Source of the DNA: a virus
Virus record (IMG/VR): IMGVR_UViG_3300013749_000001
Span: 1-37,367 of that record
DNA: 37,367 nucleotides
Direction: 5' to 3' (one strand)
Positions 1 through 37,367 of this stretch are shown here, one piece after another. A program made the translations under genes and the position numbers. Numbering within the stretch: position 1 is the stretch's first letter; the number at the start of each line of letters is the position of its first letter. The notes below the pieces were generated by a model, which was not told where the DNA came from, made no database searches, and saw only the letters and a list, made by a program, of their open reading frames with translations.

Positions 1-267
1 TGCATATCGCTATCCGTCGCATTCGGCGGGAAAAATTGTTTTCTTATAATCCTTTTATTCTCGTCGCTTAGCCACTCTTGTGGAGTGTTTTGTGTTGTTA
101 CTTGGTTCATTTCTTATCCTTACGCTATACTTTCATAAAATTTCCACGCAGGCAGGCTTAGCGTCTGCACCGCCTCTATCTCTTTGCTCTCGGGTTCAAA
201 CTTGGCATATCCCCACCATTGCCCGCGCTCTAGGCACAGCTTATAGCGCTCAAGCAGGGCTAGATAT
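1..267. repeat. Terminal direct repeat: bases 1..267 are identical to 37101..37367 (circular closure overlap / DTR)
   Basis: Direct comparison of window start and end. The RecT N-terminus and exonuclease C-terminus are encoded in both copies. Confidence 0.9.
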
Positions 268-3140: not shown

Positions 3141-3470
3141 GTGGTGGAAAAGATACTCACTCATCCGACAATTCTTGTGTGGATCATTATCGTATCTGCA
3201 ATAGCGACGTATAAACTGGGGATATGGCGAGACGGCGCGGATGCTTTCGTTAAAATTTCACAGCTTCTTTTAAAAATAGTATTGCTCCCCTTCCGCCCGT
3301 TTATAGAAAAAGAGGACGAGGGATTTGAAAAAGAGCTTGCAAGCTGCGCGACGACAGAGGAGCGAGAAAAACTGATCGAGCGCAAAAATAAAGATTTTTA
3401 TGAAAAATCCATAGTTGTTAGCATATTGCTAATCTTTCTTGTCTTTATGGTTATTCAATTCGTACAATAA
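3141..3470 (+). CDS. Small membrane protein (109 aa, GTG start)
   Basis: AAAGAGG RBS, then GTG. Hydrophobic N- and C-terminal segments. Confidence 0.45.
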   Translation: MVEKILTHPTILVWIIIVSAIATYKLGIWRDGADAFVKISQLLLKIVLLPFRPFIEKEDEGFEKELASCATTEEREKLIERKNKDFYEKSIVVSILLIFLVFMVIQFVQ

Positions 3471-3479
3471 AGGTAAAAT

Positions 3480-3887
3480 ATGACGGAACAAGAAGCAATA
3501 AATGCGCTATTAGAAGCCCTTAATCAAGAAAATCCCCCGAGCGCTAAAACAAGAGTTTTTAGAGTTTTGTATTTTATATCTTTCGTGCTTATCCCGACCG
3601 TCGGCGGAGCGATTATCGGCGTGCCGCTATTTCTTATACTGCTCGTCGTGCAATATATCCTAGAGGGGAGCATAAACCCTCGTTTTTACTTCTACGGCGC
3701 AAATCCGGTCTACGCACAAAGATTTATACAGGTTTGTAGCCTCGCGTGGATAATATGCGTAGCAGGCGCGATCTTTATCGTTTTAGGGGGAAAGGCTACG
3801 GGTAGCGACGTTTTGGCTATGATAGGAGCGGCTATAGCCTATGCCGTATATATCAGGGCTCTTAAATTTGTATTAGTAGGAATTTGA
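3480..3887 (+). CDS. Integral membrane protein (135 aa, about 4 TM)
   Basis: AAAGG RBS. Several hydrophobic helices. The first 20 nt of the CDS are identical to the start of the scaffold gene at 16051. Confidence 0.5.
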   Translation: MTEQEAINALLEALNQENPPSAKTRVFRVLYFISFVLIPTVGGAIIGVPLFLILLVVQYILEGSINPRFYFYGANPVYAQRFIQVCSLAWIICVAGAIFIVLGGKATGSDVLAMIGAAIAYAVYIRALKFVLVGI

Positions 3888-3909: not shown

Positions 3910-3990
3910 ATGAAAAAACTACTCGCTTTAATTTTGGCGGCTTTTTTACTGGCGCAAATAAGCGTTTCAGCGTCGGCAAGCGCGGGGTAA
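3910..3990 (+). CDS. Tiny ORF (26 aa, MKKLLALILAAFLLAQISVSASASAG), signal-peptide-like
   Basis: GAAGGA RBS 7 nt upstream. Below the ORF-track length cutoff. Could be a leader or small secreted peptide. Confidence 0.2.
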   Translation: MKKLLALILAAFLLAQISVSASASAG

Positions 3991-4410
3991 TCTCCACTCC
4001 CACGGGGGAATAGGATCGTCGCGCCATAGCCCTCGCTTTTCAAATTTAGCCTCACTCTCTTGCGGCGCATACTTCTTTGAAAATCTACGATACGCCCACG
4101 CGTAGCCGTTTTCTACCATTTGGGCGTTTATGTCTGCGCCGTCAAGATAGATCGTGCCGATCGTGCGCCCATATCTATCATTACCGTTTTTCTCGACTTT
4201 TACGATTTGCCCGGCAATCATAGAAGCCAAAAATTCCTTTGATTTTCGTCCGAAAGGCTGCTTGAGCTCCGGCGCATCAATGCCGAATAGCCTAACTTTA
4301 ACCTGCTTTTCTTCCATCAAAATGGTAATGGTGTCGCCGTCGTGAACGGATATGACTTTGCCAGAGAGCGCAAAAAGAAAAATTGGGAGAAAAAAACATA
4401 AAATTTTCAT
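3967..4410 (-). CDS. Secreted thermonuclease (staphylococcal nuclease/SNase family) with signal peptide
   Basis: N-terminal signal MKILCFFLPIFLFALSG. SNase motifs DGDT, RLFGIDAPE, DRYGR and GLW. Confidence 0.8.
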   Translation of the reverse strand: MKILCFFLPIFLFALSGKVISVHDGDTITILMEEKQVKVRLFGIDAPELKQPFGRKSKEFLASMIAGQIVKVEKNGNDRYGRTIGTIYLDGADINAQMVENGYAWAYRRFSKKYAPQESEAKFEKRGLWRDDPIPPWEWRLPRACRR

Positions 4411-4427
4411 TACTCAATGCTAAAGGC

Positions 4428-5039
4428 TCAGTTGCCATAAATAGACGATCCGTCATATCTTGCTAAAAATAAACCTAGGACATTAGAATTTGGCAAATTT
4501 TTTAAAATAATATCCTTATACGCCCTAAAATGCGCTCCAGTGGTTAAAACATCATCAATTAGTATTATATTGTGATTTGGCGTTTTGGCGGGTGCCGCCC
4601 ATCTCGTATTTTTTATAATTTCTGCAGGATTTCTAGTGCCGCCCGTATGTGATGGAGTGCGTTCTTCTATAGTATCTAGACAAAATTGAATATCGTAATT
4701 TTGTGATAATGATCCAAGCTTGCTAGCTACAGCATCAAGCCTGTCATTAAAGTTTGGCGAATTGCGAGGTTTTGAGGTGGCGCAAGGGATTATAGTGCAT
4801 TTCCTATCGCTTAAAGCATAATGTACCATATATGCGAATTTATCAACCGCGTCGTTTCTGTAGTGCCAATCGTTACATTCCTTGCGCGAAATATCCTTTT
4901 TAAAATTTTGCACTAGGGAATTATATTTCGATATTGAGTATCCTCCAGGGGCGTAGACGCCATAATAATAACACAGATCCTCTTCGTTAAGGTGCCGTGT
5001 AAAATCAACCCCAACTATAACCTTAATGGGCTTACACAT
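4428..5039 (-). CDS. ComF/ComFC-like phosphoribosyltransferase-domain protein
   Basis: C-terminal type I PRTase PRPP-binding motif ILIDDVLTTGAHF. No obvious N-terminal 4-Cys zinc finger. Overlaps the upstream DprA-like gene by 8 nt. Confidence 0.65.
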   Translation of the reverse strand: MCKPIKVIVGVDFTRHLNEEDLCYYYGVYAPGGYSISKYNSLVQNFKKDISRKECNDWHYRNDAVDKFAYMVHYALSDRKCTIIPCATSKPRNSPNFNDRLDAVASKLGSLSQNYDIQFCLDTIEERTPSHTGGTRNPAEIIKNTRWAAPAKTPNHNIILIDDVLTTGAHFRAYKDIILKNLPNSNVLGLFLARYDGSSIYGN

Positions 5040-5865
5040 CTTTAAAAAGATCCAAAATATCGTCAGTGTCTTTAACCCTAATAGCGCCGCGCTCCTCGTA
5101 AGAATGCGGCCATTTTAACCCGCTCTCAAAGCAAGAGTTTAATATAAAAAGTTTTCTCCCCATCTCCATACAAGCTCTAGCCTGGGTGAGAGTTCCGCTT
5201 GTCTCCGATGCCTCTATAATGATTGTAGCATCAGAAACGGCGGCCATTACGGCGTTTCTTTCGGGAAAATAAAACTTTTTTGTGCTAAATGGTTGCTGTG
5301 AATACTTATAAAATGGCACGTGGCTTAGCAATAAGTGATTTTTTGCTACTTCATCTTGTAAGGTTTTATTTTCTTTCGGATAATATTCATTAATCGGTGT
5401 TCCTATTACGCCTATTAGATGCCCGCCAACCCTTATAGTAGACCTCATAGCCTCTGTATCTATCCCTGCGGCCAGCCCTGATACTATTACAAAACCCTCT
5501 TTTGATAAAATATTGGCTATTTTTCGGGCTCTTCTTTTGCCCTCATTGCTTGCTTTTCTTGCCCCGACAATTGAGATTTTTTTAGGAGCTTCCAATAGCC
5601 CAATGTCGCCTTTATAATATAGCTTCTTTATATAAGTTTTTTTCAATAAATCTGGATATTGATAGCTTTCGTGCGTGATTATAGAAAAGTCTTTTTTTAA
5701 ATTATGAAAAAATGCCTCTATATCCTCTTTCATCAACGGAGTATCTAGCCTTGACGGCTTAAATTTTAAATCATCAACTTTTTTTAGATTACTATTGTCT
5801 ATACTGGCCCACAAAAGCTCATAATTTATAGCCTCTTGATAGGGGTTTATTGCATCAATAAACAT
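5032..5865 (-). CDS. DprA/Smf-like protein (Rossmann-fold DNA-processing protein A domain)
   Basis: KISIVGARKAS...VIVSGLAAGIDTEAMR...GVIGTPINEYYP...FPERNAVMAAVSDATIIIEASETSGTLTQARACMEMG matches the DprA Rossmann-fold core. Has its own promoter and RBS. Confidence 0.75.
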   Translation of the reverse strand: MFIDAINPYQEAINYELLWASIDNSNLKKVDDLKFKPSRLDTPLMKEDIEAFFHNLKKDFSIITHESYQYPDLLKKTYIKKLYYKGDIGLLEAPKKISIVGARKASNEGKRRARKIANILSKEGFVIVSGLAAGIDTEAMRSTIRVGGHLIGVIGTPINEYYPKENKTLQDEVAKNHLLLSHVPFYKYSQQPFSTKKFYFPERNAVMAAVSDATIIIEASETSGTLTQARACMEMGRKLFILNSCFESGLKWPHSYEERGAIRVKDTDDILDLFKDV

Positions 5866-5884
5866 AAAATTTCCTCTCTCGTTT

Positions 5885-5935
5885 GTTTTAAATTATATAA
5901 CAGGAGCCCATAAAGTTTTATAAATTTATATCATT
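5885..5935 (-). promoter_or_regulatory. Putative promoter of the DprA-like / PRTase / nuclease operon
   Basis: Minus strand reads ttatataat as a -10, about 25 nt upstream of the GAGAGAGGAAATTTT-ATG. AT-rich 126-bp gap after the P63C-like gene. Confidence 0.35.
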
Positions 5936-5991
5936 TTATCCCGCTATCGCTAAACGTCAGCCCCTTTTGAATTTCTAGCTTGATCTTGCCG

Positions 5992-6867
5992 CTAGTTTTC
6001 TTTTATTCGCCCTTCTTCGTCGAATTCTATATTTTCATCCTGCTCTCTAGCTTTAATTTTCTTAAAACGCTCCCACATTTCACGCATATTGTCGCTTGAT
6101 TGCATAATGCCTATAACCTTATAGATTTGTGCCATTAAATTCGGTTGTCCTATATCTGGAGTTAGGCGCTGATGGTAGCGTGCATGTTTTGGGGTGTTTT
6201 CTTTCAGTTCTTGCAGAACACCCATCGGCAGTTCGTTATAAATAAGATCGTTCGTCCACTTGCCTATAATGGGAGGGCGCTTTTTAATGCCGCTAACGGT
6301 AAAGTCCCAGCCATTAAGCCTGAACATTTCCTTATAAAATTCATCTGGAAATCGCTTCTCCCATTTCAGAAGCTCTTCGCTAATATAAGCTTTTAGTATT
6401 TTTTGGAGCTCATTGCGTTCACGCTCATACTGATAACCCGTGGCCTCGTCAACTAGGGCTGTGATGCCTATACGCGCAAGAGAACGAACTAAAATTTCTG
6501 CCTTTTGCGCAGTTGAAATTTGTTGTGGCGTTAAAAGCCCCTCATCCCTTGCTTTTAAATATAAGTCTGCAACAAGCGGTAAAATATCAGCGCTATAACC
6601 CTCTTTTTCCTTTCCGTTTTCGTCTAAATATGGAACTCGCTTGATCTTGGTTCGCAAGTCCGATGAAATCAGGCTTTGTAAGTTTTTAGCGTCCATAAAA
6701 GCAGGGATCTGATCTATTCTTGAATTTCCCCTTGGGTCGCGCCCCAAAGCCCTAAATACAGCATTTTGCGTGATAACCCTTGTCCCATCTTCCAAAACCG
6801 CTACGTCAAGATCAGCATCACCTATCTTTAAGACGCCGTCTGCCAATGATTTTAGAACTCTTTTCAT
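5992..6867 (-). CDS. Phage protein, putative P63C-domain family; co-oriented downstream of cI
   Basis: 291 aa with a conserved-looking VDEATGYQYERER segment. The family assignment is from memory and was not verified. Confidence 0.4.
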   Translation of the reverse strand: MKRVLKSLADGVLKIGDADLDVAVLEDGTRVITQNAVFRALGRDPRGNSRIDQIPAFMDAKNLQSLISSDLRTKIKRVPYLDENGKEKEGYSADILPLVADLYLKARDEGLLTPQQISTAQKAEILVRSLARIGITALVDEATGYQYERERNELQKILKAYISEELLKWEKRFPDEFYKEMFRLNGWDFTVSGIKKRPPIIGKWTNDLIYNELPMGVLQELKENTPKHARYHQRLTPDIGQPNLMAQIYKVIGIMQSSDNMREMWERFKKIKAREQDENIEFDEEGRIKEN

Positions 6868-6982
6868 AACTTTCTCCTACGTTAAATTTCTAAAATAAAT
6901 TTTATATTCTTAAGTTTTATTCATTTCTAGCCTTTTTCTTAAAACTTCTTAGAATTTATAGAATACGATCCGACTACGCGGA

Positions 6983-7765
6983 TTATTTTATTCCAAAATT
7001 ATCAAAAGTAAGCCCCTTATGAACCTCATAATGTATTTTTCCGCAGACCTTGCCTAATATCTCGCAATCGTAGCCCTCTTTGTGCGGATAAATATCGCCG
7101 TATTTCGGATTTAGGCTAATGAGTTTGACATTGTCATTCGGCAGAAATTCAACCCTTTTTATATACACGATCTCGCCCATTCGAACGACATAAACCCCCG
7201 CTATTCTGACAAAATTACCGCGGTTATTTACCATATCGACGACCGCCCAATCGCTCTCCTCAAAATCGGGTAACATACTATCGCCCACCACCTCGAAAAC
7301 TCTTAAATTCACGGGATTTAGCCCCTTTACGAAGCTTTTATCTACCGCTACCTTTCGCTCCTCTTTATTTAGCATTTCTAAATCGAACGTGCCCTCGCTA
7401 CCCGCGCCCACCCGCATCTCGGATTTTGAGAGAAATACCACGTTTTTCAGGCTATACTCGGCAGGGATCAGATGGGCGTATTTTTCAAAATTGTTTTTCA
7501 GCTCTTTTTTGACGATCTGGTTTTTTAGCTCTGGGCGAGACGGAAAAAAGCTCGTGACGTCTAAATCCAAAATTTCCGCCATATCGGGAATTTTATCAAG
7601 AGACGGATTAGCGGTTTTCTTTTCCTTTCCATCTTTGCCTATTTCGCCTTTTTTCGTTTCATATTGCCCTATCGTTCCTTGCGAAACGCCCATTTTATCC
7701 GCTAGCTCTTTTTGCGTTAGCTTCGCTTTTTTTCTAGCAGAGCTTATCACATCTGAAAGTTCCAT
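6983..7765 (-). CDS. CI-like prophage repressor: N-terminal XRE HTH plus C-terminal LexA/S24 peptidase domain
   Basis: N-terminal KLTQKELADKMGVSQGTIGQYE is an HTH. C-terminal VVGDSMLPDF (catalytic Ser) and IKRV (catalytic Lys) mark an S24 peptidase. Divergent from a Cro-like gene. Confidence 0.8.
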   Translation of the reverse strand: MELSDVISSARKKAKLTQKELADKMGVSQGTIGQYETKKGEIGKDGKEKKTANPSLDKIPDMAEILDLDVTSFFPSRPELKNQIVKKELKNNFEKYAHLIPAEYSLKNVVFLSKSEMRVGAGSEGTFDLEMLNKEERKVAVDKSFVKGLNPVNLRVFEVVGDSMLPDFEESDWAVVDMVNNRGNFVRIAGVYVVRMGEIVYIKRVEFLPNDNVKLISLNPKYGDIYPHKEGYDCEILGKVCGKIHYEVHKGLTFDNFGIK

Positions 7766-7864: not shown

Positions 7865-8110
7865 ATGGAACAGAATAAAATTACTCAATCGCAAATAGCG
7901 AAAAAACTTAAAATCACTCAAGGCGCGGTATCGGGCTGGTTTACCGGCGATAGCAAGCCGACCGTAGACAATGCCGCAAAGCTTGAGGAGTATTTTGGCA
8001 TTCCTGCTAAAGAGTGTGCCGATCTCCCGAGCTTTGTTAAGAATAATACCCATTTGTTCGGCTCTCTGAAAATATTACGAAAGGCTAAGAATGGTAGCGC
8101 CGAAGTATGA
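7865..8110 (+). CDS. Cro-like HTH regulator
   Basis: 81 aa. ITQSQIAKKLKITQGAVSGWF is an HTH. Divergent from cI. Confidence 0.65.
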   Translation: MEQNKITQSQIAKKLKITQGAVSGWFTGDSKPTVDNAAKLEEYFGIPAKECADLPSFVKNNTHLFGSLKILRKAKNGSAEV

Positions 8111-36342: not shown

Positions 36343-37210
36343 TTCTCAACTCCTCCGCTAATGCGTCAATCGAATTTGGATCGGCTAAATATGCCCTTGC
36401 TTCATCAGGGTTTAGCCTCTCCATCCGCTTTTCCGCTTCGATTTCGTCCACGCCTCTTGCTACTAGCTCGTTTTGCAAGGCGTCAAGCGGCAGCGCCTCC
36501 TCGTTTACGTCTATCTCTAGCGGCGCGGCTTCGATGATCTCCTCCGCGGGCTCTGCCTTTTTCTGCGTGGCTTTGGCTAGAAATTCATTTAAGCTTTGCG
36601 GCTGCTTTGCAATCTTGATTTGCCCCTCTTTGATCGGCTCATTATCCCCCTCGTTTTCGTCAATAGAATAGAGCCCCGAAATATCAAAAGCCTTGCGTAA
36701 GGCTTGGCTTTCGGCTACCTTTTTTAACATCGTTTCGGGCTTTTCCGCCCAAAATTTAGTTATTCTTCCGTCGTTTGTCCTCTGGACATATTCGTCATAT
36801 CTAACCTCTGCTTCAAAAGGGGTCTCGTGTCCTTTCTTATAGACCTGCGCGATAGCTACTAGCTCTTTTTTATTCTCCCACTCCCCATTTATGAAAACGG
36901 GCTTGTCTTTTAAAAAGCAGTCGCTCTTAATGCCGGCAAACTTGCCGCTTCTGTGCGCTAAGGTTAAAAAGCTATCACGCCCCGCGAGCGGTTCGATTTT
37001 AGAGTGCCATTCCCCATTTATTTTGGCTTTTCGCTCGACGAAAAATATCTGTTTCAAAATCGGGTTCAAATTAAAACTTTTGGCTACCGCTATGCAGTAT
37101 TGCATATCGCTATCCGTCGCATTCGGCGGGAAAAATTGTTTTCTTATAATCCTTTTATTCTCGTCGCTTAGCCACTCTTGTGGAGTGTTTTGTGTTGTTA
37201 CTTGGTTCAT
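36335..37210 (-). CDS. recT: RecT/Bet-family single-strand annealing recombinase
   Basis: 291 aa between SSB and the YqaJ-like exonuclease. The start codon lies in the terminal repeat, which also occurs at position 110. Confidence 0.7.
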   Translation of the reverse strand: MNQVTTQNTPQEWLSDENKRIIRKQFFPPNATDSDMQYCIAVAKSFNLNPILKQIFFVERKAKINGEWHSKIEPLAGRDSFLTLAHRSGKFAGIKSDCFLKDKPVFINGEWENKKELVAIAQVYKKGHETPFEAEVRYDEYVQRTNDGRITKFWAEKPETMLKKVAESQALRKAFDISGLYSIDENEGDNEPIKEGQIKIAKQPQSLNEFLAKATQKKAEPAEEIIEAAPLEIDVNEEALPLDALQNELVARGVDEIEAEKRMERLNPDEARAYLADPNSIDALAEELRSE

Positions 37211-37367
37211 TTCTTATCCTTACGCTATACTTTCATAAAATTTCCACGCAGGCAGGCTTAGCGTCTGCACCGCCTCTATCTCTTTGCTCTCGGGTTCAAA
37301 CTTGGCATATCCCCACCATTGCCCGCGCTCTAGGCACAGCTTATAGCGCTCAAGCAGGGCTAGATAT

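Follow-up and report, generated by a model that had tools for sequence, protein, structure and literature searches.

A DprA-like protein and a short phosphoribosyltransferase in a temperate Campylobacter phage: a probable short-toxin ShosTA pair

The 37,367-nucleotide virus record IMGVR_UViG_3300013749_000001 (positions 1 to 37,367, the whole stretch of DNA analysed, called the window below) carries on its minus strand a DprA-like gene, a gene for a ComFC-like phosphoribosyltransferase (PRTase) and a gene for a putatively secreted nuclease, in that order. Does this locus act on natural transformation, as the initial annotation proposed in calling it a competence-targeting module, or is it something more familiar? 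Our analysis suggests, with a probability of roughly 0.8, that the first two genes form a short-toxin member of ShosTA, a type IV toxin-antitoxin (TA) and abortive-infection system, carried as lysogen-expressed cargo of a temperate Campylobacter phage between its cI repressor gene and a conserved secreted-nuclease gene. The pair represents a catalogued short-toxin subtype of an already known kind, unremarkable defence cargo of a phage hotspot rather than a new competence-hijacking device. Such a reading adds little, as a catalogued defence system in a prophage is what one would expect.

The ShosA and ShosT proteins and their conservation as a pair

The first gene, shosA (5032..5865, minus strand), encodes a protein of 277 aa with SAM-like N-terminal helices and a Rossmann/SLOG region. 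It matches the Pfam families DNA_processg_A (2.1e-52) and SLOG LDcluster4 (4.9e-09), in agreement with its earlier description as a DprA (Smf) Rossmann-fold homolog. In PADLOC it matches the ShosA model PDLC03961 at 1.7e-73 (model positions 65-291 of 303) and the PsyrA model at just 3.1e-27. The second gene, shosT (4428..5039, minus strand), encodes a stand-alone ComFC-like PRTase of 203 aa, which would be the toxin. It matches the PADLOC ShosT model PDLC03962 at 3.4e-33 (model positions 8-212 of 237) and does not match the E. coli-specific ShosT model PDLC03012. Among the three domains that the initial annotation had named for profile searches, DprA and SNase are recovered by Pfam, and Pribosyltran is matched by the second protein below threshold (0.0045). 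The ComF-type PRTase domain of this protein has the phosphoribosyl pyrophosphate (PRPP) loop ILIDDVLTTGAHF at residues 159-171. The protein has no CxxC pairs and no four-cysteine zinc finger, as had been noticed before, C23 being the sole nearly invariant cysteine of the family.

The window pair can be joined to a validated system by a single profile for each protein. The validated E. coli APEC O1 ShosA and ShosT proteins, taken from Table S2 of Rousset et al., match their own specific models and also PDLC03961 (2e-85) and PDLC03962 (2e-53), the same two family models that recognize the window proteins. The gene order, with the antitoxin upstream of the toxin, is also that of the APEC O1 system. 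The link between the two toxins is drawn from a fold comparison and the PADLOC family profile only. Neither the single ShosT sequence nor its profile gave a significant match among the PDB chains, E. coli ShosT included, and the pairwise similarity to E. coli ShosT is confined to 38 residues, with none outside the PRPP loop. In the fold comparison the window ShosT is nearer to ComFC.

Most of the functionally important residues of the E. coli proteins have counterparts here. The aspartates D331/D332, essential for the toxicity of E. coli ShosT, correspond to D162/D163, which are present in 95 of the 95 family members, and the equally essential R285 corresponds to R136 (92/95). Of the two residues that contribute to toxicity, H240 aligns with K90 (K or R in 91/95) and K280 with P129, which is not conserved. 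In ShosA, the residues R139, R234 and R261 that bind single-stranded DNA (ssDNA) correspond to R103 (94/94), R203 (93/94) and R230 (84/94). The N-terminal HAD-type pyrophosphatase domain of E. coli ShosT is absent from the window protein, which consists of the PRTase only. The PADLOC ShosT family model does not require a HAD domain, and the R56A mutation of E. coli ShosT reduces toxicity only slightly.

We used an alignment of 24 short PRTases (A1) as the query for GTDB species genomes and IMG/VR viral contigs and obtained 123 relatives in the species genomes, 80 of which were kept, and 17 viral contigs. A first scan of the genome contigs with the single ShosT protein as query returned nothing, and the alignment-based scan was needed. 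A DprA-like open reading frame (ORF) lies immediately upstream of the PRTase, on the same strand and overlapping or abutting it, in 76 of the 80 GTDB loci and 16 of the 17 IMG/VR loci. These loci are found in Campylobacterota, Acidobacteriota, Bacteroidota, Alpha-, Beta- and Gammaproteobacteria, Chloroflexota, Cyanobacteria and Actinomycetota, in contexts that include a type I restriction-modification island (L015), a Prim-Pol element (L016), phage capsid genes (L014), phage repressors (L013) and integrases. The initial annotation knew of no phage precedent for a coupled DprA/ComFC-type pair next to a periplasmic nuclease. This claim is wrong; the pair is catalogued as Shosta and has been described on P2-like prophages. 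Its fallback suggestion, a two-gene SLOG/PRTase defence module, is borne out by the PADLOC matches of both proteins and by the conservation of the pair.

In an exhaustive profile search the family of short PRTases comprises 602 representative clusters (50% identity) at E<=1e-30, a number that rises to 1,364 at E<=1e-10; almost all have lengths of 195-230 aa. The 203 aa of ShosT are a normal family length, and the protein is therefore not truncated; about 200-225 aa is usual for the PRTase family. The DprA-like protein is not truncated either, as the superposition of its model with pneumococcal DprA spans 247 residues. These results bear directly on the mechanism put forward in the initial annotation, in which truncated, dominant-negative DprA and ComFC poison the ssDNA hand-over and, with the periplasmic nuclease, shut down natural transformation. 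The PRPP-binding catalytic site of ShosT is intact and invariant across the family, which would be unexpected in a decoy. The pair is common in phyla and contexts unlinked to competence, and the homologous E. coli pair is a validated TA and anti-phage system. Compared with true DprA and ComFC (PDB 3uqz, 4ljk, 7p0h), both window proteins fall below the equivalog cutoffs, with 155 against 191 bits for DprA (TIGR00732 / PRK10736) and 27.4 against 233.55 bits for ComFC (TIGR00201). They lack the four-cysteine zinc finger and the winged helix, and they are encoded in an overlapping operon on mobile elements of many phyla. No match to the C-terminal winged helix DprA_WH (PF17782) was found in the first protein; this domain is present in many, not all, DprAs. 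We consider the decoy mechanism, the headline of that annotation, very improbable and unsupported; the observation itself and the defence fallback stand, so that the initial interpretation is partly supported.

A system that shares features with both the window pair and ShosTA is PsyrTA (RqlHI), which likewise combines a DprA-like antitoxin with a PRTase-containing toxin. However, PsyrT is a RecQ-like helicase fused to a PRTase (PMC5512222), and the window toxin has neither a helicase domain nor a PsyrT match in PADLOC, so we rejected the identification as PsyrTA.

One locus (L111, 4466..6591) shows a ShosA-like gene followed by a 392-aa toxin in which an N-terminal HAD-like hydrolase is joined to a PRTase of the short family (hhalign probability 99.1). 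This toxin has no direct sequence match to E. coli ShosT; its domain composition makes it an architectural intermediate between the short form and E. coli ShosT. The short PRTase, being structurally closer to ComFC, offers a cleaner system for finding what the PRTase does. We found no paper joining ComFC, DprA and ShosT in the literature searched, and no mention of ComF in the two ShosTA structure papers, a check made on PMC12961424 only.

Two side observations concern ShosA. The antitoxin is far better conserved than the toxin over the same loci, e.g. ~60-68% against ~40-45% identity, a pattern opposite to the usual one in many TA pairs. The ShosA-type homologs P0113, P0114, P0118, P0120, P0124, P0135 and P0164 carry the NCBI name 'DNA-protecting/processing protein DprA'; such DprA-named prophage proteins occur in C. 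jejuni, C. coli, Sulfurimonas, Aliarcobacter and a metagenome-assembled genome (MAG) of Gammaproteobacteria. The naming of antitoxins as 'DprA' could inflate or confuse the counts of competence genes and mislead surveys.

Mechanism and points that weigh on the ShosTA assignment

Later papers cite Kimelman 2012 for the discovery of Shosta as a TA pair. Phage defence by E. coli ShosTA was reported by Rousset 2022, in a P2-like prophage hotspot and against T7 and lambda, and by Millman 2022. The mechanism is treated in PMC11961720, PMC12961424, PMC9122126 and bioRxiv 10.1101/2022.05.11.491447, and structures are available (Pu 2025, Yang 2026; PDB 8zva-8zvd, 9vzo). E. coli ShosT consists of an N-terminal HAD-type domain and a PRTase (PMC11961720); its toxicity needs PRPP binding through D331/D332 and R285, and DNA damage results. 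E. coli ShosA is DprA-like and forms a dimer; it binds ssDNA and not the toxin, and it recruits RecA. The system is triggered by the T7 Gp0.7 shut-off and probably also by phage ssDNA, and the ShosA-RecA interaction is inhibited by excess ssDNA (PMC12961424).

This mechanism is shown for the E. coli homolog, and we infer a similar one for the window pair. In the lysogen the operon would be transcribed from its own promoter, with ShosA translated first and ShosT coupled to it through an 8-nt overlap of the two genes. ShosT would bind PRPP via D162/D163, R136 and K90 and transfer or consume phosphoribosyl groups on an acceptor, and this activity would disturb nucleotide metabolism, leading to DNA damage and replication stress. 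ShosA would bind ssDNA through R103, R203 and R230 and recruit RecA through K164 without binding the toxin, so that the damage would be repaired and the cell would live. When another phage infects, its ssDNA or replication intermediates may titrate ShosA from RecA, or host shut-off may end the ShosA supply. The cell would then die of unrepaired ShosT damage before the invader completes its cycle, and the lysogen population with its prophage would be protected.

The window pair differs in size from the CHARACTERISED system (E. coli APEC O1 / KTE181 ShosTA), whose toxin has 424 aa with a HAD-type pyrophosphatase and a PRTase, against 203 aa with the PRTase only. E. coli ShosA has 327 aa against 277 aa here, where the N-terminal domain is shorter. 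Several observations speak against assigning the window pair to ShosTA with the same mode of action. Of the RecA-contact residues of E. coli ShosA, K200 maps in the alignment to K164 (K or R in 80/94) and R206 to Q170, which is not conserved; nor are the dimer-interface residues L181/F182, which correspond to R145/V146. Judging from residue offsets, the window ShosA probably ends before the counterpart of the disordered, unstable C-terminal tail that is implicated in triggering. The trigger of the window system may therefore differ from that of the E. coli system; given that the pyrophosphatase domain and probably the tail are missing, it may lean on ssDNA sensing instead of antitoxin decay. 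The published data all concern the 424-aa HAD and PRTase toxin. In addition, a secreted nuclease adjoins the pair in five separate arrangements, among them a non-homologous Endonuclease_NS in C. jejuni prophages, and some functional link between nuclease and pair is possible.

The pair could also be a prophage addiction module that kills cells losing the phage genome or silencing this region and has no role in defence. The history of Shosta as a TA pair, its place on a mobile element and the fact that a shosA deletion could not be transformed would fit such a role. Against it, the E. coli homolog protects from T7 and lambda, the slot occupied by the pair holds other defence systems in related phages, and the published antitoxin mechanism is not that of a simple labile binder. 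Addiction and defence are not mutually exclusive roles, and we give addiction as the sole function little credence.

The putative secreted nuclease and the slot behind the repressor

The third gene (3967..4410, minus strand) encodes a DNase of the staphylococcal nuclease (SNase) family with 147 aa, which matches Pfam PF00565 with 89.9 bits (cutoff 21, E 1.8e-25) and contains the motifs DGDT, IDAPE and DRYGR. In an alignment of SNase homologs (A2) the catalytic and Ca-binding residues D24, D26, T27, R40, D45, E48, Y80 and R82 are invariant; we take D24, R40, D45, E48, Y80 and R82 to be the equivalents of D21, R35, D40, E43, Y85 and R87 of S. aureus SNase. By inspection only, the N-terminus (MKILCFFLPIFLFALS followed by GKV) reads as MK, a 13-residue hydrophobic core and A-L-S before the G, and it is conserved in homologs. 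No lipobox cysteine is conserved at this end. The protein is thus a putative secreted or periplasmic enzyme with a signal-peptide-like N-terminus, in line with its first description as a signal-peptide thermonuclease. It would be exported by the Sec pathway and would degrade periplasmic or extracellular DNA (eDNA) in a Ca-dependent manner, most likely lowering natural transformation and eDNA-dependent biofilm formation in the lysogen.

Similar effects are known from the C. jejuni prophage DNases Dns (CJIE1), CJE0566 (CJIE2) and CJE1441 (CJIE4), which have been shown to stop natural transformation and to break down biofilm eDNA (PMC4372405, PMC3995785). These are likewise signal-peptide nucleases encoded just downstream of a prophage repressor, and expression in the lysogen is a feature of the CJIE enzymes; the proteins equivalent in position to the slot in CJIE4 (CJE1439-1441) were detected in lysogens (PMC3995785). 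We draw a functional analogy and claim no membership, as the window enzyme (PF00565) and the Endonuclease_NS CJE1441 (PF01223) differ in fold and family.

Is the nuclease part of the same system as the pair? The SNase gene follows shosT in all 16 loci of the window clade, some with a 4-nt overlap, and more distant ShosA-ShosT pairs have no SNase. Asked in reverse, at least 483 SNase relatives were found on viral contigs, and among the best 80 loci the pair is present in 3 and missing in 77. Conservation of the trio, which the initial annotation had thought worth surveying, thus holds within the window clade and breaks down when the nuclease is followed instead. In the phages with the closest SNases, cI is followed by 0-3 variable genes and then by the SNase gene, and an S24 repressor lies upstream of the slot in related phages.

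The contents of this slot vary. We found DarG (4.8e-89) preceded by a 198-aa ORF, a DarTG-like arrangement; PDC-S19 (3.1e-134) with DUF3644 and a restriction-endonuclease-like domain; an RmrA-like M78 peptidase with a 168-aa partner, resembling RosmerTA; DUF6731 with a RexB-like protein; and a 384-aa protein with a STAS-like DUF4325 protein and one of 134 aa. Elsewhere the slot holds P63C, ShosTA or nothing recognisable (window 3967..7765; L114-L152). In L115 the cI homolog is directly followed by the SNase gene, and in L124 and L126 a P63C gene is the sole window-related gene recognised between cI and SNase. In the window the upstream boundary of the slot is the cI-type repressor gene (6983..7765, minus strand), with Pfam matches to Peptidase_S24 (1.4e-16) and HTH_3 (8.7e-11), and the distal one is the SNase gene. 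The P63C-domain gene (5992..6867, minus strand; Pfam P63C 1.4e-29) stands between cI and shosA as a separate cargo gene outside the Shosta pair. The P63C protein has no PADLOC match, and its recurrence in the slot suggests that it is a candidate defence or regulatory gene.

As 77 of the best 80 SNase loci have no ShosA-ShosT pair and variable genes lie between cI and the nuclease gene, the cI-to-SNase slot is a defence hotspot in which the SNase is the conserved anchor at the end and ShosTA is one interchangeable insert. The SNase is thus independent cargo outside the ShosTA pair. The hotspots of P2 and P4 (Rousset 2022) are alike in that fixed flanking genes, here cI and SNase, bracket interchangeable defence cargo. 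They differ in phage family and host, and one of the flanks in Campylobacter is itself a lysogenic-conversion nuclease. A description of this hotspot did not turn up in our literature search, which was not exhaustive. With cI on one side and a nuclease gene on the other, the hotspot of Campylobacter temperate phages is a handle for finding new systems in a genus whose defence has been little studied.

The nucleases that lie beside the pair in five different arrangements could point to a three-gene unit. The nuclease would then work with the pair in a naturally competent host, either as a safeguard against autoimmunity that clears transforming DNA and keeps imported ssDNA from titrating ShosA and triggering ShosT, or as a block to uptake combined with ShosTA killing of the cells that import ssDNA, protecting the prophage from deletion by transformation. 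The arrangements are diverse. The SNase gene comes after the pair in the window clade and before it in L022 and L110; in L104 it is found 1 kb past the pair on the other strand. An Endonuclease_NS gene precedes shosA by 27-29 nt in six C. jejuni-type loci (L018, L019, L100-L103); the enzyme matches PF01223 at 1.5e-35, carries a signal peptide and is of the CJE1441 DNase family. The order in these C. jejuni prophages is S24 repressor, DUF6731, a 116-aa membrane-like protein, secreted Endonuclease_NS, ShosA and ShosT (e.g. L101 4496..6606), and in L110, an unrelated high-GC phage, it is S24 repressor, SNase, ShosA and ShosT. No other SNase or Endonuclease_NS gene was found elsewhere in the nuclease-bearing loci of ~12 kb, and by our own expectation nucleases stand beside the pair more often than by chance. 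The effect of excess ssDNA on the ShosA-RecA interaction and the block of transformation by Campylobacter prophage DNases, both cited above, would also suit a joint function.

The counts argue otherwise. A nuclease lies beside the pair in 5 of the 56 ShosT lineages and is missing from 51; of the 13 relatives closest to L110, 12 have none. The many loci with SNase and no pair show the enzyme beside other defence systems or cI, and CJIE4 of RM1221 has a DNase in the same repressor-adjacent slot and no ShosTA. The nuclease is probably exported, and ShosTA is cytoplasmic. A shared repressor-adjacent hotspot is the simpler explanation for the Campylobacter cases and L110. We rejected an obligate three-gene system as the leading interpretation because of the reverse SNase query and the lineage count, and regard a functional unit of the three genes as unlikely. 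We are equally doubtful that the short ShosTA of naturally competent Campylobacter detects any imported ssDNA, transforming DNA among it, with the neighbouring nuclease tied to it in function. If this were true, the nuclease would either prevent self-killing by transforming DNA or form with the pair a two-layer prophage module that both suppresses and punishes uptake, shielding the prophage against deletion by transformation, and an abortive-infection system would be linked mechanistically and evolutionarily to the competence machinery.

One of the nuclease-bearing loci merits separate mention. L022 (179..6008), from a marine Gammaproteobacteria MAG, encodes a secreted SNase, then ShosA and then a 116-aa ShosT fragment, possibly a decayed gene. 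A bona fide 380-aa DprA with DprA_WH lies ~3 kb off, so the paralogs coexist on one contig.

The phage, its host and the layout of the cassette

The window is a complete temperate phage genome of ~37.1 kb. Bases 1..267 are repeated exactly and directly at 37101..37367, a repeat of ~267 bp at the window ends, so the genome was assembled as a circle and is no prophage bordered by host DNA. Among its products are a large terminase, a portal/adaptor protein, a tail fibre and a tyrosine integrase, as well as a RecT/Bet-like annealase, an exonuclease VIII-like protein and a replication initiator. No tRNA gene was found in the window. The host is assigned to Campylobacter because the 90%-identity clusters of integrase and terminase take in NCBI proteins of uncultured Campylobacter sp. 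Among 50,697 GenBank phage records, none matched the region at the nucleotide level.

The same three genes, with the same lengths, were called by independent gene callers on two other public contigs. The initial annotation had named a host-core competence locus captured by misassembly as a possible refutation, and we ruled this out, as independent contigs from other samples share the arrangement in a phage context. The early region of the window is also found on a contig of 61,213 bp (L194).

The ORFs of the cassette confirm three co-oriented minus-strand genes downstream of cI and P63C, and the neighbours were confirmed by Pfam. A cro-like gene (7865..8110, plus strand; HTH_3 5.2e-13) diverges from cI. 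As first proposed, the cassette appears to have its own promoter and ribosome-binding site: a TATAAT -10-like hexamer (5892..5897, minus strand) in an AT-rich region upstream of shosA is a putative promoter element, and the Shine-Dalgarno region GAGAGAGGAA (5871..5880, minus strand) ends 5 nt before the shosA ATG, both read from the sequence. A consensus promoter scan found no full -35/-10 site upstream of shosA, which is expected for Campylobacter-type promoters. The overlap of shosA and shosT, also noticed before, is 8 nt (ATGTGTAA, 5039..5032) and is probably a means of translational coupling, and the SNase gene starts 17 nt past the shosT stop. No convincing intrinsic terminator was found after the SNase gene, either by z-score (-0.45) or in a consensus scan.

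Two small, strongly hydrophobic ORFs of 109 aa (3141..3470, plus strand) and 135 aa (3480..3887, plus strand) converge on the SNase gene. Neither has a Pfam match, and both are called as genes on L194 too. They may be further membrane-protein cargo, e.g. for superinfection exclusion.

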